Shown in pieces: positions 3,597 to 63,848 of a stretch of DNA of 64,000 bases. The notes below the pieces were generated by a model. The model had not been told where the DNA came from. It did no database searches and saw nothing but the letters and a program-made list of their open reading frames with translations. Made by a program: the position numbers and the translations under genes. Numbering within the stretch: position 1 is the first letter of the stretch; every line of letters starts with the position of its first letter. Location of the stretch: assembly GCA_049297675.1 (NCBI GenBank), contig JBAQUS010000017.1, forward strand, positions 7,456 to 71,455. Direction: 5' to 3'. Source of the stretch: Minisyncoccia bacterium. Lineage in GTDB: Bacteria; Patescibacteriota; Minisyncoccia; Phycocordibacterales; DATDWN01.

Positions 3597-4496
3597 ATGA
3601 GTGGCAACTTAAACGACGAAAAAATAAAATTTCTTGAAGATAAGGCCAAAGAAATTAGAATTTCTATAATAGAAATGCTTGTCTCGGCTGGCTCAGGGCA
3701 CTCTGCGGGACCTCTTGGTATGGCCGATATTTTTACAGCACTCTATTTTTACATACTTCGCCATGATCCAAAAAAGCCGGACTGGGAAAAAAGAGACAGA
3801 CTCATCCTCTCAAACGGTCACATAAATCCAGTTTTGTATGCCACTATGGCTCATGCAGGGTATTTTCCACTTAAAGAACTTTTGACACTTCGAAAGTTTG
3901 GTACACGTCTTCAGGGTCATCCTCATAGAGAGTACTTACCAATGCTCGAGACTTCTTCTGGACCACTTGGATGTGGACTTTCGCAGGCGGTTGGTATGGC
4001 TCTAGCAGATAGGATGAGCGTAGGAAAATCATCAGACAAGTTTTTCTATGCTCTCTTAAGTGATGGTGAGTTGGACGAAGGCAATAGTTGGGAGGCTATA
4101 ATGCTTGCGAACAAATACAAACTTGGGAATCTTATCGCCATAGTTGATCGAAACAATATTCAGATTGATGGTTTTACGGATGATGTTATGCCACTTGGGA
4201 ATGTTGCAAAAAAATTTGAAAGTTTTGGTTGGCATACTGAAGAAGTAGATGGACATAATTTTGCAAATATTATTGCGGCAGTTGGCAGAGCCCAAGCTGT
4301 CTATAATGCTCCGTCAGTTTTGGTGGCTAGAACCATCCCGGGAAAGGGCGTTTCTTTCATGGAAAAGGATTTTAAATGGCACGGCTCTCCTCCGGGGACA
4401 GAAATGAAAGGTGAGCCACCAAAGGATGAACAGGCGAAGATAGCTTTGCATGATTTACGTACATTAAAAGGCCAAATAACCGGCGAACACGAATAA
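3597..4496 (+). CDS. tktA: transketolase, N-terminal (thiamine-diphosphate-binding) subunit
   Basis: GHSAGPLGMADIFTALYF and SNGH motifs. The ATG at 3597 is preferred over the upstream TTG. Confidence 0.9.
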   Translation: MSGNLNDEKIKFLEDKAKEIRISIIEMLVSAGSGHSAGPLGMADIFTALYFYILRHDPKKPDWEKRDRLILSNGHINPVLYATMAHAGYFPLKELLTLRKFGTRLQGHPHREYLPMLETSSGPLGCGLSQAVGMALADRMSVGKSSDKFFYALLSDGELDEGNSWEAIMLANKYKLGNLIAIVDRNNIQIDGFTDDVMPLGNVAKKFESFGWHTEEVDGHNFANIIAAVGRAQAVYNAPSVLVARTIPGKGVSFMEKDFKWHGSPPGTEMKGEPPKDEQAKIALHDLRTLKGQITGEHE

Positions 4497-6754: not shown

Positions 6755-6775
6755 TGTGGAAGACGGTCTTCCACA
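6755..6775. repeat. REP family 1 palindrome TGTGGAAGAC-G-GTCTTCCACA
   Basis: 10-bp perfect arms around a central G. Confidence 0.85.
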
Positions 6776-6788
6776 GTAGTATGTATTT

Positions 6789-7445
6789 ATGGAAAGAAAA
6801 ATACCATTGTTTGAGGGGGAATGCTTTCATATATATAACAGAGGTGTGGATAAAAGAAAAATTTTCTTAGATTCACACGACTATAACAGATTTATAATTT
6901 TACTTTACCTTTGTAACTCAAACTTACCTGTTGATCTTCAAAAAATTTTTCGAGAAGGACGAACATTTAATGAGATATTTAGTATTGATAGAGGCGATCG
7001 ACTTATTGACATAGGCGCTTGGGTGTTGATGCCAAATCACTTTCATCTATTGGCCAGGCAGAATTGTAGTGATGGATTGTCTGTTTTTATGAGAAAACTA
7101 TGTACCGGATACTCAAATTACTTTAATCAAAAAAATAATAGATTAGGAGCGCTTTTTCAGGGCAGATTTAAATCTGAACATGCATCTGATGATAGATATT
7201 TAAAGTATTTATTTTCCTATATTCACTTAAATCCAGTTAAACTTATTCCAGGGGAGGAAAATTGGAAGGAGGTTGGTATAAAAAATCCAGATAATGCATC
7301 TAAATTCATAAATAATTATGAATACTCCAGTCTACATGACTACAGAAATGAGACCTTGTTCAGTAGTCTAGTAAATAAGGAACTATTTAGTAGTATCTCT
7401 GACGATTTAAGGGATATGGTTGAAAGCGTGAATAATTGGCTATAA
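6789..7445 (+). CDS. REP-associated tyrosine transposase (RAYT; IS200-like Y1 HUH transposase), copy 1
   Basis: FHIYNRG, AWVLMPNHFHLL (HuH) and YIHLNPVK (catalytic Tyr) motifs, matching the E. coli RAYT pattern. Confidence 0.8.
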   Translation: MERKIPLFEGECFHIYNRGVDKRKIFLDSHDYNRFIILLYLCNSNLPVDLQKIFREGRTFNEIFSIDRGDRLIDIGAWVLMPNHFHLLARQNCSDGLSVFMRKLCTGYSNYFNQKNNRLGALFQGRFKSEHASDDRYLKYLFSYIHLNPVKLIPGEENWKEVGIKNPDNASKFINNYEYSSLHDYRNETLFSSLVNKELFSSISDDLRDMVESVNNWL

Positions 7446-7453
7446 ATAAGCTT

Positions 7454-7476
7454 TTGTGGAAGACGGTCTTCCACAA
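7454..7476. repeat. REP family 1 palindrome TTGTGGAAGAC-G-GTCTTCCACAA
   Basis: 11-bp perfect arms, in the same orientation as 6755-6775. Confidence 0.85.
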
Positions 7477-21020: not shown

Positions 21021-21051
21021 TACTACCCCTACATCGGAAGTAGGAGTAGTA
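21021..21051. repeat. REP family 2 palindrome TACTACCCCTAC-ATCGGAA-GTAGGAGTAGTA
   Basis: Imperfect 12-bp arms, 7 nt upstream of the RAYT-2 start. Confidence 0.75.
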
Positions 21052-21058
21052 TCTTGGC

Positions 21059-21772
21059 ATGGCAAAAAGAAGGATAAATTTCTCATTAGATGAGTTCTAT
21101 CACTTGTATAATAGAGGAAACAGTAAGCAGAAAATATTTCTTGATGAACAGGATTATGATAGGTTTACCAAACTTCTTTTTCTCTGTAACACCATAAAAA
21201 GTATTAATTATAGGGATGATATCGTTGAAAAAGAAATTGATGCATGGGATTACGATAAAGGAGAAAGTATTGTTTCGATAGGAGCATGGGTTCTAATACC
21301 CAACCACTTTCATATACTTATAACAACACCCCCCACATCGGAAGTCGGGGAGGGGTCGATAAGTTTTTTTATGAAGAAGGTTTGTATTTCATACTCAAAG
21401 TACTTTAATAAAAAGTATGAAAGAGTAGGAGGTTTATTTGAGTCGAATTTTAAGTCTTCACACATAGATGATGATAATTATCTAAAATATATTTTTTCCT
21501 ACATTCACCTTAATCCAGTAAAAAAAGTTTTTCCCAACTGGAAAAATGATGGCATTTTGGATTATGAATTAACAAAAGAGTTTCTGAACAAATATGAGTA
21601 TAGTAGTTACACGGATTATATAAATATAAAAAGAAATCAAAGTAAAATTTTATCGATTGGAGAATTTCCAGACTACTTTTCTGATACTAAATTATTTAAG
21701 GATGAAATTTTTGATTGGCTATCATATACCCCTACTTCCGATGTAGGGGACAATGATGTAGGGGACAATTAG
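21059..21772 (+). CDS. REP-associated tyrosine transposase (RAYT), copy 2
   Basis: FYHLYNRG, AWVLIPNHFHIL and YIHLNPVK motifs. Divergent from copy 1. Confidence 0.8.
   Translation: MAKRRINFSLDEFYHLYNRGNSKQKIFLDEQDYDRFTKLLFLCNTIKSINYRDDIVEKEIDAWDYDKGESIVSIGAWVLIPNHFHILITTPPTSEVGEGSISFFMKKVCISYSKYFNKKYERVGGLFESNFKSSHIDDDNYLKYIFSYIHLNPVKKVFPNWKNDGILDYELTKEFLNKYEYSSYTDYINIKRNQSKILSIGEFPDYFSDTKLFKDEIFDWLSYTPTSDVGDNDVGDN
21329..21355. repeat. REP family 2-like sequence CCCCCCACATCGGAAGTCGGGGAGGGG, in frame inside RAYT-2 (encodes PPTSEVGEG)
   Basis: Shares the ACATCGGAAGT core with the flanking REPs. Confidence 0.6.
21729..21769. repeat. REP family 2 copy in inverse orientation (CCCCTACTTCCGATGTAGGGG) plus a 15-bp tandem duplication (GATGTAGGGGACAAT x2) forming the RAYT-2 C-terminus
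   Basis: Read directly. Encodes ...TPTSDVGDNDVGDN before the stop. Confidence 0.7.
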
Positions 21773-21858
21773 CTGATAATTCATGATGATTTAGGGGGCA
21801 TTTGGAAATATAAGGGAAATTGCTTAGCTGGGAAACAAGGAAAGGAGTGATATTCATT

Positions 21859-21880
21859 CCCCCATATCGGAAGTAGGGGG
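21859..21880. repeat. REP family 2 palindrome CCCCCATATCGGAAGTAGGGGG
   Basis: 5-bp C/G arms around the ATCGGAAGT core. Confidence 0.7.
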
Positions 21881-30877: not shown

Positions 30878-31519
30878 ATGAATTATGTTGTCGGTATAGA
30901 TGAAGTTGGAAGGGGACCACTGGCTGGGCCTGTCACTGTCTGTCTGGTTTGTTGCGAAGATAGATTATATAGAAAGTTAAAGCAAAATAGAAGTTTACCC
31001 AAATTAGGTCAAGACAGCAAAAAAATCTCAGAAAAAAATCGCCAGAAATACTCCTTGACCCTGAAGTCCCTAATGTCAAAGACGGTCTTTGACATTTCCA
31101 AAGGGGACCCCTTTGGGAATGAGATTGGAATGTGGTATGTAGTTAATCATGTTTCAAACAGAGTAATTGACCAAAAGGGAATTTCTTTTGCGATTGAAGG
31201 GGCTATTGCCACAGGAATTAAGGGGTTAAATTTAGATGCAAAAAATTGCATAATTTTGCTTGACGGAGGATTAAGAGTGCCGAAAAATTTTAAACAGAAA
31301 ACAATAATAAAGGGCGACGAGAGGGAAAAAATAATTAGCTGGGCTTCGATTTTGGCAAAAGTTTCGAGGGATGATCTGATGATAAATTTGAGTAGGAAGT
31401 ACTCATTTTATGGTTTTGATAAACACAAAGGCTATGGCACCAAACACCACAGAGAAATGATCCTGGAATTTGGCTTAAGCAAAATTCACCGCAAAACCTT
31501 CTGCAAAAAATTGATTTAG
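30878..31519 (+). CDS. rnhB: ribonuclease HII
   Basis: GIDEVGRGPLAGPV active-site motif. Confidence 0.9.
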   Translation: MNYVVGIDEVGRGPLAGPVTVCLVCCEDRLYRKLKQNRSLPKLGQDSKKISEKNRQKYSLTLKSLMSKTVFDISKGDPFGNEIGMWYVVNHVSNRVIDQKGISFAIEGAIATGIKGLNLDAKNCIILLDGGLRVPKNFKQKTIIKGDEREKIISWASILAKVSRDDLMINLSRKYSFYGFDKHKGYGTKHHREMILEFGLSKIHRKTFCKKLI

Positions 31520-34243: not shown

Positions 34244-35257
34244 GTGAAAAGGAAAAATATTTCTGGAGGTAATACTCAGGACGTTGTTATTTATAGAAGT
34301 TCTGAAGGCAACGTAACTTTAAGAGCTGACATAAGTAAGGACACTATATGGGCGACACAAGCACAGATTGCTGAACTTTTCGGTGTTGATAGAACAGTAA
34401 TAACCAAACATATTCGTAATATTTTTCGTGAAAGAGAACTTCAGGAAAAGGCAGTATGTGCAAAATTTGCACATACTGCAGGTGATGGGAAAACATATAA
34501 TGTTCAGTATTATAATCTTGATGCAGTAATTTCAGTTGGATATAGAATAAATTCTAAACAAGCAACACAGTTTAGAATTTGGGCAACTGAAACTCTCCAT
34601 GATTACATTATTCATGGAATGGCAGTAAATACAGAAAGAATAAAGAAATTAAATAACTCTAAACTTCAAGATTTAAATAGTAAAATTTCTTTCATACAGG
34701 AAACAATAAGAAGAAAACAGCTTGACCAAGAAGAGGTAGATAGTTTACTTTCAGTTATTCGTGACTATGCAAATTCATGGACTTTTCTTCAGAAATACGA
34801 TGATGGGAGTTTGGAACTGACAAAGAGTAAAACAAAAGAAAAATCTGTTTTAGAGTATGGTTTTGTCAGGAGTTCGATTGATGAATTGACTAGAAAATTG
34901 AGACAAAAAGATGAGGCGGGCGATTTGTTTGGTAATGAAAGGGACGAGACTTTCAAGGGAATATTAAAGGGAATTTATCAGTCATTTGGTAGTAAGGAAA
35001 TTTATGATGGTTTGGAGGTTAAGGCTGCACATCTTCTATATTTTATAATAAAAGATCATCCATTTTCCGATGGCAACAAACGCATTGGCTCTTTTCTGTT
35101 CATTCTATTTTTAGAATTAAATAAAATATTATATAACAGAAAAGGTGATAGAAAAATTACAGATAATACACTTGTTGCTCTAGCACTTTTGGTTGCTGAA
35201 AGTGACCCAAAAGAAAAAGAAACAATGGTAGCTCTAATAACAAATCTCTTAAAATAA
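34244..35257 (+). CDS. RhuM-family N-terminal domain fused to a Doc/Fic domain (HPFSDGNKR)
   Basis: RhuM-like IWATQAQIAELFGV...YNLDAVISVGYRINS, and the C-terminal Fic/Doc motif HxFxDGNKR. GTG start. Confidence 0.75.
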   Translation: MKRKNISGGNTQDVVIYRSSEGNVTLRADISKDTIWATQAQIAELFGVDRTVITKHIRNIFRERELQEKAVCAKFAHTAGDGKTYNVQYYNLDAVISVGYRINSKQATQFRIWATETLHDYIIHGMAVNTERIKKLNNSKLQDLNSKISFIQETIRRKQLDQEEVDSLLSVIRDYANSWTFLQKYDDGSLELTKSKTKEKSVLEYGFVRSSIDELTRKLRQKDEAGDLFGNERDETFKGILKGIYQSFGSKEIYDGLEVKAAHLLYFIIKDHPFSDGNKRIGSFLFILFLELNKILYNRKGDRKITDNTLVALALLVAESDPKEKETMVALITNLLK

Positions 35258-35276: not shown

Positions 35277-35386
35277 AGATTGTCCAGTTAAATCTTGCTA
35301 ATTTTAGTGTTATAATTTAAGTTAGTGATTTTTTTATTAATAATAATCAACTTCGGAAATTAAAAATTTCCTATCTCTAACGGGAT
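35277..35386. promoter_or_regulatory. inverted-repeat pair ATCCCGTTAGAGAT (35277-35290) / ATCTCTAACGGGAT (35373-35386) ending at the smc ATG
   Basis: 14-bp perfect arms 82 bp apart. Same CCCGTTAGAG core as at gap. Confidence 0.6.
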
Positions 35387-37637
35387 GTATCTAAAATCAA
35401 TTGAACTTTCTGGATTCAAGAGTTTTGCAAAAAAGGCAGAGCTCAGTTTTAACTCCAAAGTTTCTGCTATAGTAGGTCCGAATGGTTCGGGAAAGTCTAA
35501 CATTGCCGAAGCTTTTCGATTTGTACTAGGTGAACAGTCCATAAAGAGTTTGCGTGGTAAAAAAGGAGAGGATTTAATATTTAATGGAGCAGGGAACTTA
35601 CCAAGGTCTAATAGAGCAGGAGTTAAAGTAGTTTTCGACAATAATACAAAATTTTTACCAATTGACTTTGAGACAGTGACAATCGAAAGAGTAGTTCACA
35701 GGGACTCAGTAAACGAATATCTTATAAATGGCTCACAGGTCAGACTCCGGGATGTTATTGAGCTACTCTCATCAGCTCATATAGGCTCCTCTGGGCATCA
35801 TATTATCTCCCAAGGTGAAGCGGATAGAATTCTAAATGCCAGCACAAAAGAGAGAAAAGCTATGATCGAGGATGCACTAGGGCTCAAACTGTATCAGTAT
35901 AAAAAAGTTGAGAGTGAGAGAAAGCTAGAGAAAACAGAAGAGAACATTAAACAAGTTGGATCACTGCGTCGTGAAATTATGCCCCACATAAAGTTTCTCA
36001 AAAAACAGGTTGAGAAAGTGGAGAGGGCGATAGAGCTCAAAGATGAGCTTCAAAAAGAAGCACAAGAATATCTTCGGCGTGAGGAAGAATACATTTCTGT
36101 TAATGAGAAAAATTTAGAAAAAGAAAAAAACCCACTTTTAGAGAGTCAGAGTAATCTGGATAAGGAACTTCGTCAGGCTAAGGAGACTTTAGAGAAGGCA
36201 AAAAATAAAGATGAAAAATCTAAAGAGCTTATAGAACTTGAATCGGATTTACACAATACAAGAGAAGAAAAGGATAGTCTTTACAGAGAATTCGGAAGAG
36301 TAGATGGAGAACTTATGTCCCTAATTAGAATGGTAAAAAAGCAGGAAGAAGTAGGGCGATCTATTGAGCACAAAACAGTGGCACTCATCTTGGTTGAAAA
36401 GCTAATAAGTGACATTGAGAAAATTACTAGTGAGGCAAGACAAAAAAAGGATGTAGATTATCTGGTTACTGCAATAGATAAAACAATCCTACTATTGAAT
36501 AACTTCATTGATGAGAATAAAGATAGAGTGGATATGTCTCTTTTGGAAGAAAGCAGAAAAGAAATTGACAGTTTGAAATCAAGAAAAGAGAAAATAGAGA
36601 AGTCACTTTCTGATTTGACAGAGAAAGAGAAAGAGTTCGATAAAAGATACAGAGAACTAAAATCCAGTATTGAAAAGGAAAAAGATGTAAACCGTGATGC
36701 AGAAAAGGCTGTTTTTAGAATTATGGCTGAGAGTCAGGAAGTGCGTTCAAAAATTCATGATTTAAGTCTAAAAGAGGAGAATTTGAGGCTTGTTAGGGAA
36801 GATTTCAAAAGGGAGCTCCTTGAGCTCGGGCATATAGTCGGTGTTTCCATTTCTGAATACAAAAAATTGGACTTGGATTTTAGCGTGGAAGAGAGACGGG
36901 GGGATCAGGAAGAGAGAAGAAGGAAAATTGAGAAAATAAAAATTCGCTTGGAGGACTCGGGTGGAGCAGGTGGTGCTGAAGTTTTAAAGGAATACACTGA
37001 AGCCACTGAGAGGGATAGTTTTTTGGAGAGGGAGCTTTTGGATTTGGAAAAATCGGCAGAGTCTCTACAAGAGTTAATAAAAGATTTGGACGAAAGACTT
37101 TCAAACGAGTTCAAGCAAGGAATTAGTAAGATAAATCATCAATTTAAAGAATATTTCTCACTCATGTTTGGTGGAGGTGATGCTTCACTTTCTGTCTCTG
37201 CTCCAGTAAAAAGAAAAAAGAGAGATACAGATCTGGATTTAGAAAGTGGTGACGATCCAGAGCTAGTAGAAGAAGAGGCGGAAGAGGGAATCGATATTGA
37301 GGTCAATCTACCAAAGAAAAAAGTTAAAGGTCTTATGATGCTCTCAGGTGGTGAAAGAGCTCTGACATCCATTGCACTTTTGTTTGCCATCTCACAAGTA
37401 AATCCACCTCCTTTTATTATTCTGGATGAAACGGATGCGGCACTAGACGAGGCAAATTCTAAAAAGTATGGAGATATGGTGGAAAGTCTATCTGAGAGAT
37501 CACAGCTTATTGTCATAACTCACAACAGAGAAACAATGTCACGGGCTGGGATTCTCTACGGGGTCACTATGGGACTAGGTGGCGGGTCAAAGCTTCTCTC
37601 AGTCTCTTTTGATGAAGCTGTTACAACTGCCAAGTAA
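35385..37637 (+). CDS. smc: SMC-family chromosome-segregation ATPase, short (750 aa)
   Basis: N-terminal Walker A GPNGSGKSN, a long coiled coil, and a C-terminal LSGGERALTSIALLFA signature with Walker B. Confidence 0.75.
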   Translation: MYLKSIELSGFKSFAKKAELSFNSKVSAIVGPNGSGKSNIAEAFRFVLGEQSIKSLRGKKGEDLIFNGAGNLPRSNRAGVKVVFDNNTKFLPIDFETVTIERVVHRDSVNEYLINGSQVRLRDVIELLSSAHIGSSGHHIISQGEADRILNASTKERKAMIEDALGLKLYQYKKVESERKLEKTEENIKQVGSLRREIMPHIKFLKKQVEKVERAIELKDELQKEAQEYLRREEEYISVNEKNLEKEKNPLLESQSNLDKELRQAKETLEKAKNKDEKSKELIELESDLHNTREEKDSLYREFGRVDGELMSLIRMVKKQEEVGRSIEHKTVALILVEKLISDIEKITSEARQKKDVDYLVTAIDKTILLLNNFIDENKDRVDMSLLEESRKEIDSLKSRKEKIEKSLSDLTEKEKEFDKRYRELKSSIEKEKDVNRDAEKAVFRIMAESQEVRSKIHDLSLKEENLRLVREDFKRELLELGHIVGVSISEYKKLDLDFSVEERRGDQEERRRKIEKIKIRLEDSGGAGGAEVLKEYTEATERDSFLERELLDLEKSAESLQELIKDLDERLSNEFKQGISKINHQFKEYFSLMFGGGDASLSVSAPVKRKKRDTDLDLESGDDPELVEEEAEEGIDIEVNLPKKKVKGLMMLSGGERALTSIALLFAISQVNPPPFIILDETDAALDEANSKKYGDMVESLSERSQLIVITHNRETMSRAGILYGVTMGLGGGSKLLSVSFDEAVTTAK

Positions 37638-37670: not shown

Positions 37671-38033
37671 ATGTGTATTATCACAGCTATCGAGTGCGAA
37701 GTCTGCAACGACCCAATCATTGCAGTTGAACCTAGAGAAGAAAAAGTTGTAGTTACAATACTGTGTTTCAGGTGTCTGACTTTGTTAACCTACTCGATCG
37801 ACGAGTTGGCTAAATTGAACAAGGTCAGGTGCGGGAATATGAAATGCAGAAATGTAGTCATAACTACGCACAGAAAGAGTGATGAAGTAATTATCACTCT
37901 TGAATGCTCGAGTTGCCCGAATATCTCTAGTTTCTCACTTGACGGCCTGCAAAGATCGGTCGGACTAAGGTCTGATTACGACTGCATTGATCAGGCAGAA
38001 ATTGTCTACCAGATTAGCCATCTCGTCTACTAG
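37671..38033 (+). CDS. hypothetical double zinc-ribbon protein (~120 aa), GC-elevated
   Basis: Four CxxC pairs (CEVC, CFRC, CGNMKC, CSSC). G-rich RBS 5 nt upstream. Confidence 0.4.
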   Translation: MCIITAIECEVCNDPIIAVEPREEKVVVTILCFRCLTLLTYSIDELAKLNKVRCGNMKCRNVVITTHRKSDEVIITLECSSCPNISSFSLDGLQRSVGLRSDYDCIDQAEIVYQISHLVY

Positions 38034-38152
38034 GAGTCGAAGTGCTGGTGTTTCTTGAGGACCCCGCGATTGCATCAATGCATCAAAGGGTCCGTCTTTA
38101 TATATAAAAATAAATAACTAAACCACAAAACTATCTAAGTATGCTTAATGTA

Positions 38153-38200
38153 TACTCATACACTTAACTTATGCTATAGCATAAGTTAAGTGTATGAGTA
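38153..38200. repeat. 48-bp perfect palindrome (24-bp arms TACTCATACACTTAACTTATGCTA) in a convergent intergenic region
   Basis: Read directly. Flanked by A-rich direct repeats (TAGGTAAAA x2, ATAAAG.GTAAAA x2). Confidence 0.85.
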
Positions 38201-38324
38201 GTTAATAAATGCATAACGAAATTTAGGTAAAATGAAATCTAGGTAAAAATTGGGTGTGCAAAATAAAGTAAAAGCAAAAATAGGGTAAGGTTAATAAAGA
38301 GTAAAAACTTGAATTAACTATTAA

Positions 38325-40250
38325 TTATGAATTAACAAGAGAGTAGTCGAGCACTCGACGTTCGAGGTCGGCTGAAACAACTTTGAACCTGACTTTGTCG
38401 CCCAATGTGAATTTCTTACCACTACTCTGTCCCTTGATTGTGTAGTTTTTTTCGTCTAGTGACCAAAAGTCATCACCCAAATCCTTTAGCTTTATCATTC
38501 CTTCGCATTTTGTTTCTTTCTCCTCAACATAAATACCCCATTCTGTCACGCCCATTATGGTGCCATCGAATTCCTCACCAACATGCTCTTGCATGTATTC
38601 TACCTGTTTGTACTTTATAGAAGTTCTCTCGGCATCTGTTGCTTTTTTTTCAAGCTCGCTCGATGCTAGACAAAGGGTTTCATATTTTTGAAATTCATCA
38701 AGTTCTACTTTTCCACCCTTGAGCTCTCGCTCTAGAAATCTGTGAACTAATACGTCCGGGTATCTTCTTATGGGTGAAGTAAAGTGCGTATAGTAAGCGA
38801 AAGCTAAAGAGAAATGACCAATGTTTTTTGTCGAGTAAACTGCCTTTTGCATACTTCTGACAGTAGCCGTATTTATGAGTTCCTCATTTGGTGTACCTTT
38901 TACTTCAGCTAAGAGTCGATTCAAATCCTTCGACGTTACTTCACCATCTTTGTTATTTAGATCAAAGCCTAAAGCTTTTAGAAAAATTGCCAAATCTTTT
39001 ATCCTATCTTTGTCTGGATTAGCATGAATACGATAGACAGATTGTTTACCTTTTAAACCTTTGTTTTGTGACATAAAAATATGTTTTGCCACAGCACGGT
39101 TAGCTAGGAGCATAAATTCCTCCACAAGTTTATGAGTATCAAGTCTTGATTTTCTGTAAACAGAAACTGGTTTACCTTTTTCATCTAATACAAACTTTAC
39201 TTCATCAGTATCAAAAACCATTGCTCCAGATTTTATTTTATTTTTTTCAAATTTCTGAGCTATTTCTCTTAGTTTTCTTAGCTCTTTTTGAAATGGGTCT
39301 TGGAGTTTTCCATCAATAACTTCCTGTGCTTCCTCATATGTGAACCTCTTGTCGGAATGTATAACTGTTCGTCCGAACCATTCGTCAAAAACTTTTCCGC
39401 TTCCATCCATTTTAAAAATAGCAGAAAAAGTAAATTTATCCTCGTCTGGGTTTAATGAACAAAGATCATTAGATAAAACTTCAGGGAGCATGGGAATTGT
39501 TCTATCTACCAAATAAACAGAGAGTCCTCTTTTTTCGGCTTCATGATCTAGCTCTGTACCAGGTGTTACAAAATATGAGACGTCAGCGATATGTACACCT
39601 ATCTCGTATGTATCATTCCCTAAATCCACAAATGAAATGGCGTCGTCAAAATCCTTTGCATCAAATGGGTCAATTGTCATAGTAGTGACATCTCTCATAT
39701 CACGACGGTTTTTTATTTCACTTTCGAAATGACTTCTGTATTCCTTTTTTATTTTCTCTGCTTCTTCTTCAACTTTTTCTGGAAATTCAACACGAAATCC
39801 ACGCTCTAGAACAATAGACTCCATCTCTGTGTTGTTCTCTCCCTTCTTTCCTATTACCATTACCAGCTCTCCCGCTAGTGTTTGCCAGTCGACTATTTTA
39901 ACTAGAACCTTTTCATTCTTTATAACATTCTCATCGTTTGGCAAGGAAATATCCACATAAACTCTTTTATCATCGGGAACAGCGTAAACTTTTCCGTCAT
40001 GAATATCTATTGTTCCAACAAACTCATCTCTGGACCTCTTTACTATTTTTTCCACTTTACCCTGTTCACGGTTTCTTATTTTATTTCCCAAAAGAGAGAC
40101 AATCACAATGTCTCCAGAAAATGCCTTGTTTATATTTTCTGGTTGAATCTCTATACTCTCGTCTTTTTTCCTGCTCAGTGGATCAGGGTTAAAAAAACCC
40201 ACACCTTTTGTGTTCACAGATATCTGTCCCTCGAGGGTCTTTTTAGTCAT
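38325..40250 (-). CDS. rnr: ribonuclease R (RNB family exoribonuclease)
   Basis: Cold-shock/OB domain, RNB domain motifs, and a C-terminal S1 domain. Confidence 0.9.
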   Translation of the reverse strand: MTKKTLEGQISVNTKGVGFFNPDPLSRKKDESIEIQPENINKAFSGDIVIVSLLGNKIRNREQGKVEKIVKRSRDEFVGTIDIHDGKVYAVPDDKRVYVDISLPNDENVIKNEKVLVKIVDWQTLAGELVMVIGKKGENNTEMESIVLERGFRVEFPEKVEEEAEKIKKEYRSHFESEIKNRRDMRDVTTMTIDPFDAKDFDDAISFVDLGNDTYEIGVHIADVSYFVTPGTELDHEAEKRGLSVYLVDRTIPMLPEVLSNDLCSLNPDEDKFTFSAIFKMDGSGKVFDEWFGRTVIHSDKRFTYEEAQEVIDGKLQDPFQKELRKLREIAQKFEKNKIKSGAMVFDTDEVKFVLDEKGKPVSVYRKSRLDTHKLVEEFMLLANRAVAKHIFMSQNKGLKGKQSVYRIHANPDKDRIKDLAIFLKALGFDLNNKDGEVTSKDLNRLLAEVKGTPNEELINTATVRSMQKAVYSTKNIGHFSLAFAYYTHFTSPIRRYPDVLVHRFLERELKGGKVELDEFQKYETLCLASSELEKKATDAERTSIKYKQVEYMQEHVGEEFDGTIMGVTEWGIYVEEKETKCEGMIKLKDLGDDFWSLDEKNYTIKGQSSGKKFTLGDKVRFKVVSADLERRVLDYSLVNS

Positions 40251-41099: not shown

Positions 41100-41120
41100 T
41101 GTGGAAGACCGTCTTCCACA
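41100..41120. repeat. REP family 1 palindrome TGTGGAAGAC-C-GTCTTCCACA (opposite orientation to the copies at RAYT-1)
   Basis: Same 10-bp arms as 6755-6775, with central C instead of G. 20 nt after the KH gene stop. Confidence 0.85.
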
Positions 41121-61780: not shown

Positions 61781-61808
61781 TTGACAAAAAAAATAACAGT
61801 GCTAGAAT
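61781..61808 (+). promoter_or_regulatory. near-consensus sigma70 promoter TTGACA-N16-TAGAAT
   Basis: Hexamers read directly. AT-rich context just upstream of a GC-rich gene. Confidence 0.55.
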
Positions 61809-61822
61809 ACATATGGAACAGA

Positions 61823-61843
61823 TTGATCGCATTCCGCGATCAA
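61823..61843. promoter_or_regulatory. palindromic operator-like site TTGATCGC-ATTCC-GCGATCAA between the -10 element and the RBS
   Basis: 8-bp perfect arms, positioned at about +15 to +35 of the predicted transcript. Confidence 0.5.
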
Positions 61844-61855
61844 AGGAGGATTCGG

Positions 61856-62506
61856 ATGGCTACCAAAGCGACTGTCAACGAGACCACCGTGCGCCAGGCC
61901 TTTGTGGACTACGCACGTGAGGCGACCCTTGCCGTCGGCAAGGACGGAGTACACCCTCGGTTTGTCGGGTTTTACATCGTTCACGAGGTCACCGATCTCG
62001 TGAATGTAGCGAAGCTCTCATACAAGGAGGGGCGCTTCGATGAGGCATTCGAGAAGATCACCAGTGCGAGGAAGTGGCTTCTCGGTGGTCAGCGCAAGTA
62101 CGTGCTGAGTTCGGTCGAGAAGTACTTCGAGGCTCGTCTCGAGGATCTACGATACTCCGAGCTCGAGCAGGATATCCTCGACGGCGTCAACTCGAAGATG
62201 AGGGAATTCGAGTCAGCTCTCGTTGCCCTCAAGGGTGGCAATGCCAGCCTCGAAGAAGTGACCGTCATGTATTGGGTGCTCAACGATGCAATCGAGAATG
62301 CACCCAAGCTCCAGGCAGAGCGCGACGAGCATCGTCGCAAGCTCGCCGACGAGGATCGTTCCCGCAAGCAACGCGAGAAGATGCTCGCCAAGAAGGCACG
62401 CGAGGCCGAAGAGGCAGAGAAGAGCCGTCAGGCTCAGATCGAAGCCAACGCTCGCTGGCGACAGGAGCGTGAGAGCTTCGTCGACGAGCTCTTCGCGGGG
62501 CTCTAG
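61856..62506 (+). CDS. hypothetical protein (216 aa), strongly GC-rich (~58% by eye), with a charged coiled-coil-like C-terminus
   Basis: AAGGAGG RBS 6 nt before the ATG. Codon usage is dominated by GAG, CTC and CGC, unlike the backbone. No recognised domain. Confidence 0.55.
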   Translation: MATKATVNETTVRQAFVDYAREATLAVGKDGVHPRFVGFYIVHEVTDLVNVAKLSYKEGRFDEAFEKITSARKWLLGGQRKYVLSSVEKYFEARLEDLRYSELEQDILDGVNSKMREFESALVALKGGNASLEEVTVMYWVLNDAIENAPKLQAERDEHRRKLADEDRSRKQREKMLAKKAREAEEAEKSRQAQIEANARWRQERESFVDELFAGL

Positions 62507-62534
62507 TACACAAGGTCGGCAAGGCCGACGAAGT

Positions 62535-62567
62535 CCGGAGAGGACAGCAAACTCTCCGGGCTTTTTT
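62535..62567 (+). terminator. intrinsic terminator CCGGAGAG...CTCTCCGG followed by GCTTTTTT
   Basis: 8-bp stem plus a T6 run. A second hairpin, GTCGGC-AAG-GCCGAC, sits just upstream. Confidence 0.6.
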
Positions 62568-62624
62568 AGTACAAAAATTTTATTTGTGATATTATTACGT
62601 TAGAAATCTTAGAGAGGAGTAAGG

Positions 62625-62756
62625 ATGTCACAGAGGACAAACACTACTATACCTTTCTCGTTAGGGTTCTTCGCCGTTTCATCCGTCTTTGTTGCGGGGG
62701 CAACATTAGTAGCACGTGGGCTAGTGATTGTTCTCAGTCAGTACTTCAACTTCTAG
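62625..62756 (+). CDS. hypothetical micro-membrane protein (43 aa)
   Basis: GAGGAG RBS and one TM helix. GC-elevated. Confidence 0.3.
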   Translation: MSQRTNTTIPFSLGFFAVSSVFVAGATLVARGLVIVLSQYFNF

Positions 62757-62766
62757 CGAGGTAAAG

Positions 62767-62925
62767 ATGGAAAAAAAGAAAGAAGTAATATGTAGTCCGG
62801 TTTGCGATAGTCGCAACATCGGTCCGTACTACTCAACAGGCTACAACATCTGCCGGAAATGCGGGAAACTTCTTGATGAGATCTTGCTCCCCCCAGAAGG
62901 GTCAGAAAGGTTGGTAAAAAAGTAA
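62767..62925 (+). CDS. hypothetical zinc-ribbon micro-protein (52 aa)
   Basis: CSPVC...CRKC Cys pairs, a GAGG RBS, and a terminator downstream. Confidence 0.35.
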   Translation: MEKKKEVICSPVCDSRNIGPYYSTGYNICRKCGKLLDEILLPPEGSERLVKK

Positions 62926-62930
62926 CAAGT

Positions 62931-62982
62931 GCTTGCGGGGGAGGGTAAAGTCAGTTTTCTTTACCCCACGCAAGGCTTTTTT
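62931..62982 (+). terminator. intrinsic terminator CTTGCGGGG.AGGGTAAAG...CTTTACCCCACGCAAG followed by TTTTTT
   Basis: Long imperfect hairpin plus a T6 run. Confidence 0.55.
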
Positions 62983-62987
62983 GTTAC

Positions 62988-63010
62988 ATGCCAAGGGGCA
63001 CCCTTGGCAT
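62988..63010. repeat. REP family 3 palindrome ATGCCAAGGG-GCA-CCCTTGGCAT
   Basis: 10-bp perfect arms with loop GCA. Confidence 0.85.
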
Positions 63011-63050
63011 AAGTGAATAATTATGGAAATATCACGACTTGGTCCTTTAA

Positions 63051-63072
63051 ATGCCAAGGGTGCCCCTTGGCA
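63051..63072. repeat. REP family 3 palindrome ATGCCAAGGG-TGC-CCCTTGGCA (inverse orientation)
   Basis: Same arms with loop TGC. Confidence 0.85.
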
Positions 63073-63174
63073 AGTAGGAAGTCAGTATTTAGTTATACAT
63101 CCCCGTCTTTCGTAGAATATTTTTCTCGAAACTTATCAATATTGTTTAAGGGCTTTTTCAGTAAGTCCACTACT

Positions 63175-63795
63175 TTACATTGGATCATTAGATAAGTTTA
63201 TTGTTTCGTCTAAGAAATCGTTACCGTCAAACAGTTCTTCAATAATTTGTCTATAAACAAGTATGAAATTCCTATCAGAAGTGTAGTCGATATAACTACT
63301 CCATTTATAATCATTAATATTACTTACAAGTCCATCTTTCAAGGGATTTGTGTGAATGTAGGCAGAAGTCCACATCAATTGTTCGTTTGAATTTATAACT
63401 TTAGACTTGAACTGATCTTGAAATAGATGACCAACTCTTTTATATTTTCTATTAATGTACATTGCATAACTTGTACAAAGTTTTAATATTAAATTTGAAA
63501 TGGGAATATTTTTCGATTGCTCGATCAATAAATGAAAATGATTTGGCATTAGACAAAAAGAGTGTAATTTAAATGCATTTTTTCCTAGCCCTTCTATCCT
63601 AATTCTGGAGTGAGGGAGATTGGTCAGTACATTTTTGTTTAATTCGGCTTCCTCAAACCCCAAAATTAGGCCTAGTCTAAATAAAAATGCCCTGTAATCC
63701 TGCTGGTCAAAGAATATTTTTTCTTTATTGTTACCCCTATTGTAGGCATGGAAGATTGAACCATCACCAACATCTTTGTAATCTCTTAGTTTCAT
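63175..63795 (-). CDS. REP-associated tyrosine transposase (RAYT), copy 3
   Basis: FHAYNRG, FCLMPNHFHLL and YIHTNPLK motifs. Confidence 0.8.
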   Translation of the reverse strand: MKLRDYKDVGDGSIFHAYNRGNNKEKIFFDQQDYRAFLFRLGLILGFEEAELNKNVLTNLPHSRIRIEGLGKNAFKLHSFCLMPNHFHLLIEQSKNIPISNLILKLCTSYAMYINRKYKRVGHLFQDQFKSKVINSNEQLMWTSAYIHTNPLKDGLVSNINDYKWSSYIDYTSDRNFILVYRQIIEELFDGNDFLDETINLSNDPM

Positions 63796-63826
63796 AGCCC
63801 ATTATAATCTAGGATTGTTAATGTAA

Positions 63827-63848
63827 TGTCAAGGGTGCCCCTTGGCAA
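63827..63848. repeat. REP family 3 palindrome TGTCAAGGG-TGC-CCCTTGGCAA (one G-T mismatch in the stem)
   Basis: ~30 nt upstream of the RAYT-3 start. Confidence 0.75.

Follow-up and report, generated by a model that had tools for sequence, protein, structure and literature searches.

The window analyzed in this study, a 64,000-nucleotide stretch of a Minisyncoccia MAG, is ordinary core chromosome: it carries gyrB, dnaE, smc, nusB, and the genes for RNase HII and RNase III, together with rpsP, trmD, rpoB/C, dnaG, and a sigma-70 gene. Its best species-level relatives were Patescibacteria/Paceibacteria MAGs. The initial annotation had drawn attention to a convergent spacer between a GC-rich zinc-ribbon ORF and the 3′ end of rnr, and this setting was confirmed, with 291 bp between the two genes and a Pfam-supported RNase R (Table 1). 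The Cys-rich zinc-ribbon ORF has a GC content of 42%, compared with 38% for the window. It gave no match in Pfam or NCBIfam, and a tblastn search with it returned the same species only; by alignment, the closest relative found, L102, carries a shorter, diverged homologue at the equivalent place. The ORF is followed by a GC-rich hairpin (the hairpin proper spans 38059–38093, with the T-rich tail after it), which is likely its terminator, and the consensus terminator scan, in which loops of up to 8 nt are allowed, did not call it.

Table 1. Coordinates of the features considered in the window.
Feature	Position	Strand	Description
REP1 hairpin, TGTGGAAGACGGTCTTCCACA	6755 and 7455		Beside Y1_Tnp gene 1; solitary copy at 41100, 19 nt after the stop of a KH-domain gene
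Y1_Tnp gene 1	6789–7445	+	Above Pfam cut-off; sub-threshold NCBIfam match to 'REP-associated tyrosine transposase'
REP2 hairpin, CCCCTACATCGGAAGTAGGGG	Four copies around 21026–21879		Beside Y1_Tnp gene 2; no other copies seen
Y1_Tnp gene 2	21059–21772	+	Above Pfam cut-off
Cys-rich zinc-ribbon ORF	37671–38033 (alternative start 37665)	+	120/122 aa; four CxxC motifs
GC-rich hairpin, GGACCC...GGGTCC, then GTCTTTATATAT	38059–38105	+	Likely terminates the zinc-ribbon ORF; seen in sequence and fold, conserved in L102 and L103
AT-rich block (24% GC)	38101–38324	.	224 bp; holds the palindrome and the tandem repeat
Perfect palindrome	38153–38200	.	48 bp; 24-nt arms, spacer of 0; TACTCATACACTTAACTTATGCTA and its reverse complement
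Left outer arm	38153–38165	.	Mirrored at 38188–38200; specific to this genome
Invariant core, AACTTATGC-TATA-GCATAAGTT	38166–38187	.	22 bp; identical in four other Paceibacteria contigs
Tandem duplication, GAAATYTAGGTAAAAW	38218–38248	+	Two copies of 16 nt; TRF score 55, 1.9 copies
rnr (RNase R)	38325–40250	-	Pfam RNB/CSD2/OB_RNB/S1; NCBI 'ribonuclease R [Minisyncoccia bacterium]'
REP3 hairpin, TGCCAAGGGTGCCCCTTGGCA	62989, 63052, and 63827		Beside Y1_Tnp gene 3; no other copies seen
Y1_Tnp gene 3	63175–63795	-	Above Pfam cut-off

The 48-bp perfect palindrome with 24-bp arms that had been claimed for this spacer is present as an inverted repeat without a spacer, reading TACTCATACACTTAACTTATGCTA followed directly by TAGCATAAGTTAAGTGTATGAGTA, and it is real and non-random. 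It is separated from the rnr stop codon by 124 nt and lies 516 bp downstream of smc. It folds into a 22-bp stem with a TATA loop, with a free energy of -21.3 kcal/mol as a DNA hairpin (z = -12) and of about -36 to -37.5 kcal/mol as an RNA hairpin, the fold being the same on either strand. The stem has a GC content of 29% and the core at its apex one of 27%. In the left outer arm, a second ACTTA lies beside the ACTTA of the core, and the right arm carries the mirror image of this duplication.

A single copy of the palindrome was found in the 64-kb window with three mismatches allowed, and the next-longest perfect palindrome of the window has 14-nt arms, compared with 24 nt here. The description of such a palindrome as rare holds against chance, since arms of at least 24 nt are expected 8e-10 times in 64 kb at the window composition, but it needs qualification within the group: in related Patescibacteria loci totaling 1.28 Mb, a perfect palindrome with arms of 19–27 nt was found roughly every 80 kb. 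Terminators with an A-tract, a GC stem, and a T-tract make up most of these, and the window palindrome differs from them. Rfam searches at gathering and permissive thresholds returned only sub-threshold matches resembling microRNA precursors, as a generic hairpin does, and in plasmid and phage records, BLAST with the palindrome region gave chance matches only. A literature search with the palindrome sequence yielded nothing relevant, and the promoter and terminator scans placed no site at the palindrome.

The AT-rich block that holds the palindrome contains no ORF of at least 20 aa wholly within it. By alignment, the entire block is missing in L102, whose RNase R is 86% identical and whose gene order is rnr, the homologous hairpin (starting 4 nt after the rnr stop codon), the shorter Cys-rich homologue, and smc. 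In L103 (RNase R 81%), the same spot is occupied by a different insert with a 192-aa membrane ORF, which has no similarity to the block, and more distant relatives have still other contents at the rnr/smc spacer. No homologue of the spacer was found by blastn at 80 rnr loci from related species. The absence from L102, the insert in L103, and the other contents elsewhere indicate that the block is lineage-specific and that the rnr/smc spacer is variable.

A-rich direct repeats had also been described as flanking the palindrome. What stands of this is one 16-nt unit, GAAATYTAGGTAAAA, duplicated in tandem on one side of the palindrome only, which is modestly unusual (shuffle p of about 0.003–0.03) and has no further copies in the window; the second repeat that had been named needs an indel and was reported by no repeat finder. 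Taken as iterons beside a palindrome, these repeats had suggested a replication-associated site, either an origin or a plasmid-like ori, and an AT-rich block that combines a palindrome with a short tandem repeat does recall such sites. However, the repeat has just two copies and weak significance, no DnaA/Rep gene is nearby, the flanks are housekeeping genes, and the cumulative GC skew rises steadily through 38 kb with no inflection. Moreover, L102 does without the block, and the related palindromes described below have neither an AT-rich block nor repeats. An iteron-type origin would present at least three directly repeated iterons, DnaA boxes or a gene for Rep or DnaA, and a signature in skew or coverage, and this locus does not fit that description, so that we consider a role in replication hardly credible.

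The assembly evidence was considered separately. Logan contigs built at k=31 from three runs (L001/L084, L002, and L003) match the flanking genes at 100% identity and all end 6 nt beyond the palindrome center, with L001 covering the rnr flank and L002, L003, and L084 the smc flank. These breaks are explained by the method, since, with 24-nt arms, a de Bruijn graph built at k=31 has to branch once 30 bases are shared (24 + 6). Alone, contigs unable to cross the palindrome are also compatible with extra sequence between the arms, and one project may have produced both the MAG and the Logan runs; both points would allow a collapsed inverted repeat, a fold-back chimera, or an adaptor. Against this, the join links syntenic neighbors, as smc, a small ORF, and rnr are adjacent in L102, L103, L013, and L015, where smc or a small ORF likewise converges on rnr, and the palindrome is not a fold-back of one flank. 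At other loci of the family described below, palindromes with the same center come from different groups and assemblers, and k=141 and JGI/NCBI assemblies read through them. The plasmid and phage records did not match, and we know of no library adaptor with this sequence. The syntenic join and the shared center in independent assemblies therefore answer the concern, raised in the initial annotation, that the sequence might be an assembly or adaptor artefact, which we regard as very improbable.

A metagenome scan with the central 20-mer of the palindrome returned five contigs, four of them independent, and revealed a small family. The window copy (host GC 38%, 48 bp) reads TACTCATACACTT-core-AAGTGTATGAGTA. 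A contig from the 0.1-µm fraction of groundwater, L085 (host GC 30%), reads CTCCA-core-TGGAG over 32 bp, and the contigs L086/L087 from Ca. Sungbacteria (host GC 53%) read AAA-core-TTT, recorded as 26 bp. The remaining two, L088 (host GC 48%) and L089 (host GC 43%), both belong to the metagenome Ga0247727 and read ATTCCCTCCG-core-CGGAGGGAAT, recorded as 42 bp, and CCTCCA-core-TGGAGG over 34 bp, respectively. All hosts are Paceibacteria/Parcubacteria: besides the Minisyncoccia MAG of the window, a protein next to the L087 copy is 100% identical to a Ca. Sungbacteria protein, and the best matches of the MsrA on L088 are named Paceibacterota and Parcubacteria proteins. The proteins beside the L085, L088, and L089 copies have no recorded names.

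At all five loci, the invariant core is the exact center of a longer perfect palindrome, with arm extensions of 3, 5, 6, 9, and 13 bp beyond it. The outer arms vary among the members and are always exactly complementary, so that every arm pair beyond the core (36 of 36) is Watson–Crick, without wobble. The arms of L088 and L089 are near-identical and differ by one symmetric G-C/A-T exchange. Similarity among the loci ends at the palindrome edge, and neither a shared tag nor a target duplication was found at the flanks of the five copies. As a control, a 16-mer from the center had about six independent matches in viral contigs, with arms of 8–9 nt and once 11 nt; since these show no palindromic extension, the extensions beyond the core in the family are not due to chance. 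The exact 22-mer was absent from the viral contigs, and no core variant (up to four mismatches, variable loops) was found in 1.5 Mb of other Patescibacteria loci. The uniform Watson–Crick pairing, together with the mirrored ACTTA of the window copy, argues that the arms were copied from each other and that the hairpin, beyond a mere protein footprint, matters.

Concerning genomic position, the other copies follow unrelated genes (a MerR-type HTH gene, a PaaX-like gene, an MsrA gene facing a cation-efflux gene, and an epimerase gene), 5–16 nt past the stop codon and mostly between convergent genes. In L085 and L088, a canonical terminator hairpin adjoins the palindrome. The Sungbacteria copy, 5 nt past a stop codon, has TTTTT after its stem and in this resembles a normal intrinsic terminator. 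Near the same copy, an IS located 30 nt from the palindrome is present or absent depending on the assembly. Based on these features, the window palindrome belongs to a small, previously unnoted family of Paceibacteria that behaves like a REP-type variant.

The convergent position raises the question of whether the palindrome is a structural RNA element that arose in place, namely a two-strand 3′ hairpin that would act on the convergent transcripts of rnr and the zinc-ribbon ORF as a barrier or terminator and would block exonucleases. The spacer, the identical and very stable fold on both strands, and the lack of any other obvious rnr terminator within 124 nt agree with this; pairing by Watson–Crick bases only would be expected if the hairpin were needed on both strands, and the Sungbacteria stem with its T-run fits as well. 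Bidirectional intrinsic terminators, which are common in related genomes, share the convergent position and the perfect Watson–Crick stem on both strands, but they have A- and T-tract flanks and GC-rich stems, both missing in the window palindrome, which also has a conserved 22-nt sequence. The AT-rich stem is followed by GTTAATAAAT on the + strand and by TACATTAAGC on the - strand, and it does not have the form of an intrinsic terminator, as the empty terminator scan also indicates. A T-run after the stem is missing from the window copy, L085, L088, and L089; L085 and L088 have canonical terminators next to the palindrome; L102 does without it; and a terminator would not need 22 identical nucleotides across genomes of 30–53% GC. 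The earlier proposal of a bidirectional terminator is weakly supported; the zinc-ribbon ORF has a hairpin of its own, and the family is not a ubiquitous family of simple terminators, as had been considered possible. We judge an RNA element arisen in place to be quite unlikely as the explanation of the palindrome.

The window also contains candidates for enzymes that act on hairpins. The three Y1_Tnp genes (IS200/RAYT-like) are paralogues with 35–46% mutual identity, and each encodes an HUH motif (NHFH) and a YIH.NP tyrosine motif and has a 21-nt palindrome of its own on either side. In relatives, the same arrangement of Y1 genes and hairpins was observed with other hairpins, and in the relative L004 two RAYT-flanking hairpins have a common core and different symmetric outer arms. 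In published REPtrons, each REP type has its own tnpA, and a genome may hold several types (PMC6006769, PMC8266576); the arrangement in the window matches this layout. Since the Y1 genes come with their own hairpins, and L004 repeats the style of a common core with varying arms, hairpin-mobilizing enzymes and REP-like hairpins are native to this lineage. The hairpins that flank the Y1 genes here are GC-rich, in contrast to the AT-rich core, and none of the three window Y1_Tnp genes or of three from relatives is flanked by the palindrome core; other hairpins take its place, and no gene of any other kind was seen with the core on its flanks.

The palindrome has several features in common with REPs and REPINs, which RAYT (TnpA_REP) Y1 transposases mobilize. 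It is a short extragenic hairpin just downstream of genes, and it belongs to a sequence family spread over unrelated loci, in which the apex is conserved and the stem co-varies symmetrically; the window genome, in addition, has RAYT-like genes, each with its own hairpin type (PMC8266576, PMC6006769). The description of a REP as an extragenic stem-loop palindrome applies to the window palindrome directly. REPs also have a conserved GT[AG]G (or CGTC) at the 5′ foot of the hairpin (PMC8266576, PMC3733652), and this tag is absent at the 5′ foot of the five members, with a GTAG in the window that overlaps the 3′ end of the palindrome only. Further differences concern abundance and form. The palindrome has one copy per 64 kb, whereas REPs have tens to hundreds per genome, and no cognate transposase was found for its core. 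It is a spacer-less perfect palindrome of up to 48 bp instead of the usual 20–40-nt stem-loop, and its core is identical across hosts of diverse GC content, whereas REP types are usually lineage-specific.

Taken together, the invariant apex, the symmetric variable stems, the positions after genes, the absence from L102, and the GC-diverse hosts make it the best reading, with a probability of roughly 0.4, that the palindrome is a copy of a small, non-autonomous REP-like hairpin element whose arms were copied from each other. The probability is kept at this level because the GTAG/CGTC tag and any flank motif are missing, the window has one copy in 64 kb, and no transposase flanked by the core was found. 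In addition, 22-bp identity across GC-diverse hosts requires either horizontal spread or a very conserved recognizer, and the instances known number five, four of them independent of the window.

According to this reading, the functional unit would be the 22-nt apex, composed of a 9-bp stem (AACTTATGC/GCATAAGTT) and a TATA loop, and a trans-acting enzyme would recognize it as a hairpin of single-stranded DNA. The likeliest enzyme would be an HUH/Y1 transposase of the type carried here in several copies, which may place the element in short spacers downstream of genes. Below the apex, one arm of the stem might serve as template for the other, through fold-back synthesis, template switching, or hairpin-templated repair, and such copying would make every copy a perfect Watson–Crick palindrome despite the differing outer arms. 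A template-switch-type mechanism that makes perfect hairpins in one step has been described (10.1101/2023.04.19.537475). The AT-rich block that contains the window element, between the convergent rnr and zinc-ribbon ORF, would then be a recent acquisition. As an incidental effect, and not as its raison d'être, the element would give transcripts of either strand a very stable hairpin in the 3′ region, and it probably acts as a strong hairpin of this kind on either transcript strand.

Among mobile elements, the subterminal hairpins of IS200/IS605 elements and of their gene-less derivatives (PATEs) were also compared. These are hairpins of 20–25 nt that Y1 enzymes recognize as single-stranded DNA, and the window Y1_Tnp genes, with identical hairpins on both sides, resemble them. 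The palindrome differs in that it has no paired second end, no recognizable guide or target tetranucleotide, and no adjacent tnpA or tnpB. The suggestion of a MITE remnant came nearest to the REP-like reading, as it likewise supposes a small, non-autonomous palindromic element; the features that define a MITE are not there, as the arms abut without internal sequence, the window copy is single, and terminal repeats and target duplications are missing, with no direct repeats flanking any of the five copies, and the hairpin as such forms the unit. An integron attC site, an imperfect palindrome with extrahelical bases that recurs behind successive cassettes near intI, was rejected, since the ACTTAAC...GTTAAGT of the window appears to be fortuitous (the other members have CCAAAC...GTTTGG, unlike RYYYAAC...GTTRRRY), the family palindromes are perfect and occur singly, and an integrase is missing. 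A parS site, a DNA-uptake sequence, a homing-endonuclease site, and a phage-type promoter were considered and dropped.

In place of a REP-like hairpin, the palindrome may be read as a double-stranded DNA site for a symmetric dimeric protein. This protein might be a regulator, act in partition or condensin loading, or be a site-specific recombinase or hairpin-telomere resolvase. The 9-4-9 core would suit this, with half-sites one helical turn apart as in the operators of HTH dimers, and so would the strict 22-bp conservation across genomes, the low copy number, and the location 516 bp downstream of smc. Telomere-resolvase targets share the architecture of a conserved central palindrome inside a longer perfect one: the N15-type telRL sites have a 22-bp central palindrome within palindromes of 42–56 bp, with outer parts that are specific to the replicon, and at such sites perfect symmetry would follow automatically from replication through the hairpin. 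However, the palindrome lies inside a housekeeping chromosome with two unlike flanks in every assembly, and it is not known to resemble the telRL sequence; as contigs run through into different flanks, it is probably not a chromosome end.

More generally, a protein footprint leaves the palindromic, copy-specific outer arms unexplained, and the positions after stop codons, mostly between convergent genes, offer nothing to regulate. The window ORFs scanned and the surroundings of the other copies yielded no recombinase, resolvase, or ParB, and there is no change of skew at the palindrome. The proposal of a recombinase or resolvase site is retained as one of these joint candidates; among the approximately 50 window ORFs scanned, none matched a Pfam resolvase, and none was a recombinase. 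A Xer/dif or tyrosine-recombinase core can be set aside, as it needs an asymmetric spacer of 6–8 bp between arms of 11–13 bp and the center here is fully symmetric; for dif in particular, no skew switch occurs at the palindrome and the ORFs scanned included no recombinase. On balance, we consider a double-stranded protein site unlikely. If the palindrome were such a site, it would be a rare conserved cis-element in a group with almost no regulation known.

In a variant of the REP-like reading that we find doubtful, the family would be an undescribed hairpin class of Paceibacteria, in which an invariant 22-nt apex has spread across GC-diverse genomes and the stem is rebuilt from one arm at each copying, which would make every copy a perfect palindrome. 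The class would be mobilized by an enzyme other than the canonical GTAG-reading RAYT, such as another HUH/Y1 subclass or a hairpin-making or hairpin-resolving enzyme.

If the REP-like reading is correct, it would mean that the ultra-small, gene-poor Patescibacteria keep and exchange miniature hairpin replicators, and that several pairs of Y1 transposases and hairpins are kept within 64 kb despite strong genome reduction. The family would then show cleanly, in nature, how arm-to-arm copying keeps palindromes perfect, and its short invariant apex could serve to find the enzyme that recognizes it. The palindrome itself is a modest curiosity, and the local consequence for rnr and its neighbor is probably small under either reading. 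For practical work, the points at which palindromes of this kind interrupt k=31 assemblies of such genomes can be predicted.

The analysis of the window identified three paralogous IS200/RAYT-like Y1 transposase genes within 64 kb, and both sides of each gene carried a 21-nt palindrome, the type of which (REP1, REP2 or REP3) was distinct for each gene. This arrangement of genes and hairpins is REPtron-like and is located in a Patescibacteria genome, and the density of such units in a 64-kb window is unusually high. The coordinates of the genes, of a solitary REP1 copy and of further palindromes are listed in the table.

Positions of Y1 transposase genes, hairpins and other palindromes (window positions, or positions in the named locus of a related genome)
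Feature	Position	Strand	Sequence	Context
Y1 transposase gene 1	6789-7445	+		Array including hairpins 6755-7475
Y1 transposase gene 2	21059-21772	+		Array including hairpins 21026-21879
Y1 transposase gene 3	63175-63795	-		Array including hairpins 62989-63847
REP1			TGTGGAAGACGGTCTTCCACA	Beside Y1 gene 1
REP2			CCCCTACATCGGAAGTAGGGG	Beside Y1 gene 2
REP3			TGCCAAGGGTGCCCCTTGGCA	Beside Y1 gene 3
Solitary REP1 copy	41100-41120			Shortly 3' of KH-domain gene
Perfect palindrome	31074-31094		AATGTCAAAGACGGTCTTTGACATT	In frame, within RNase HII ORF 30878-31519
Second-longest perfect palindrome of the window	34451-34479		GCAGTATGTGCAAAATTTGCACATACTGC	Inside RhuM-Fic/DOC ORF
TCGAT-NN-ATCGA palindrome	L050 15323-15362			Related genome
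TCGAT-NN-ATCGA palindrome	L067 13405-13446			Related genome
TCGAT-NN-ATCGA palindrome	L083 5364-5397			Related genome

Concerning the variation of the hairpins, the third Y1 protein was compared with that of L004, a relative locus carrying a RAYT-like gene between two hairpins. The two proteins share 58% identity, and their flanking hairpins, REP3 and those of L004 (2792-2814 and 3425-3453), differ by symmetric changes (TGCCAAGGG.. vs TGTCAAAGAG.., respectively). These sequence comparisons suggest that enzyme and hairpin have co-evolved in this pair through paired substitutions. For the palindrome in the RNase HII ORF, the centre corresponds to that of REP1 and the arms to those of the L004 hairpin TGTCAAAGAGACTCTTTGACA, which flanks the RAYT-like gene.

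In related genomes, a TCGAT-NN-ATCGA centre is common to other perfect palindromes that lack a spacer and differ in their symmetric arms; these may represent a second family with a conserved centre and variable arms. Beside the Ca. Sungbacteria copy of the main palindrome family, the assemblies part 30 nt from the palindrome (L087 1-120 vs L105 10780-10967). In one of them the apparent 3' end of a transposase gene follows, in the other the sequence that follows is unrelated, and several long contigs stop at this same point. Judged from the assembled sequences, this looks like an insertion-sequence polymorphism adjoining the palindrome.

Among the neighbouring proteins, the Cys-rich ORF (37671-38033) consists of two zinc-ribbon-like halves, with CxxC...CxxC occurring twice; it matched no known family, and tblastn found no relatives outside the same species. 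An internal duplication is suggested, since the homologue in the closest relative, L102 (about 3634-3860), is shorter than the window form. The NCBIfam SMC model is about 1,180 aa long; the SMC protein of the window (35385-37637) has only 750 aa and matched this model in two stretches, slightly under the cut-off. As the short form was also observed in L102 (747 aa) and in a second relative, L103 (753 aa), the shortened coiled coil seems to be typical of the clade.

The 337-aa ORF at 34244-35257 joins an N-terminal RhuM-family segment and a Fic/DOC (death-on-curing toxin-like) C-terminus in one reading frame. The kilobase 62001-63000, which adjoins the third Y1 gene, has 52% GC against 38% for the window, and a Pfam search with the 241-aa ORF located there (61781-62506) gave no match. 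Finally, two exact tandem copies of TGCATCAA (8 nt each, 38071-38086) lie in the loop of the terminator-like hairpin.
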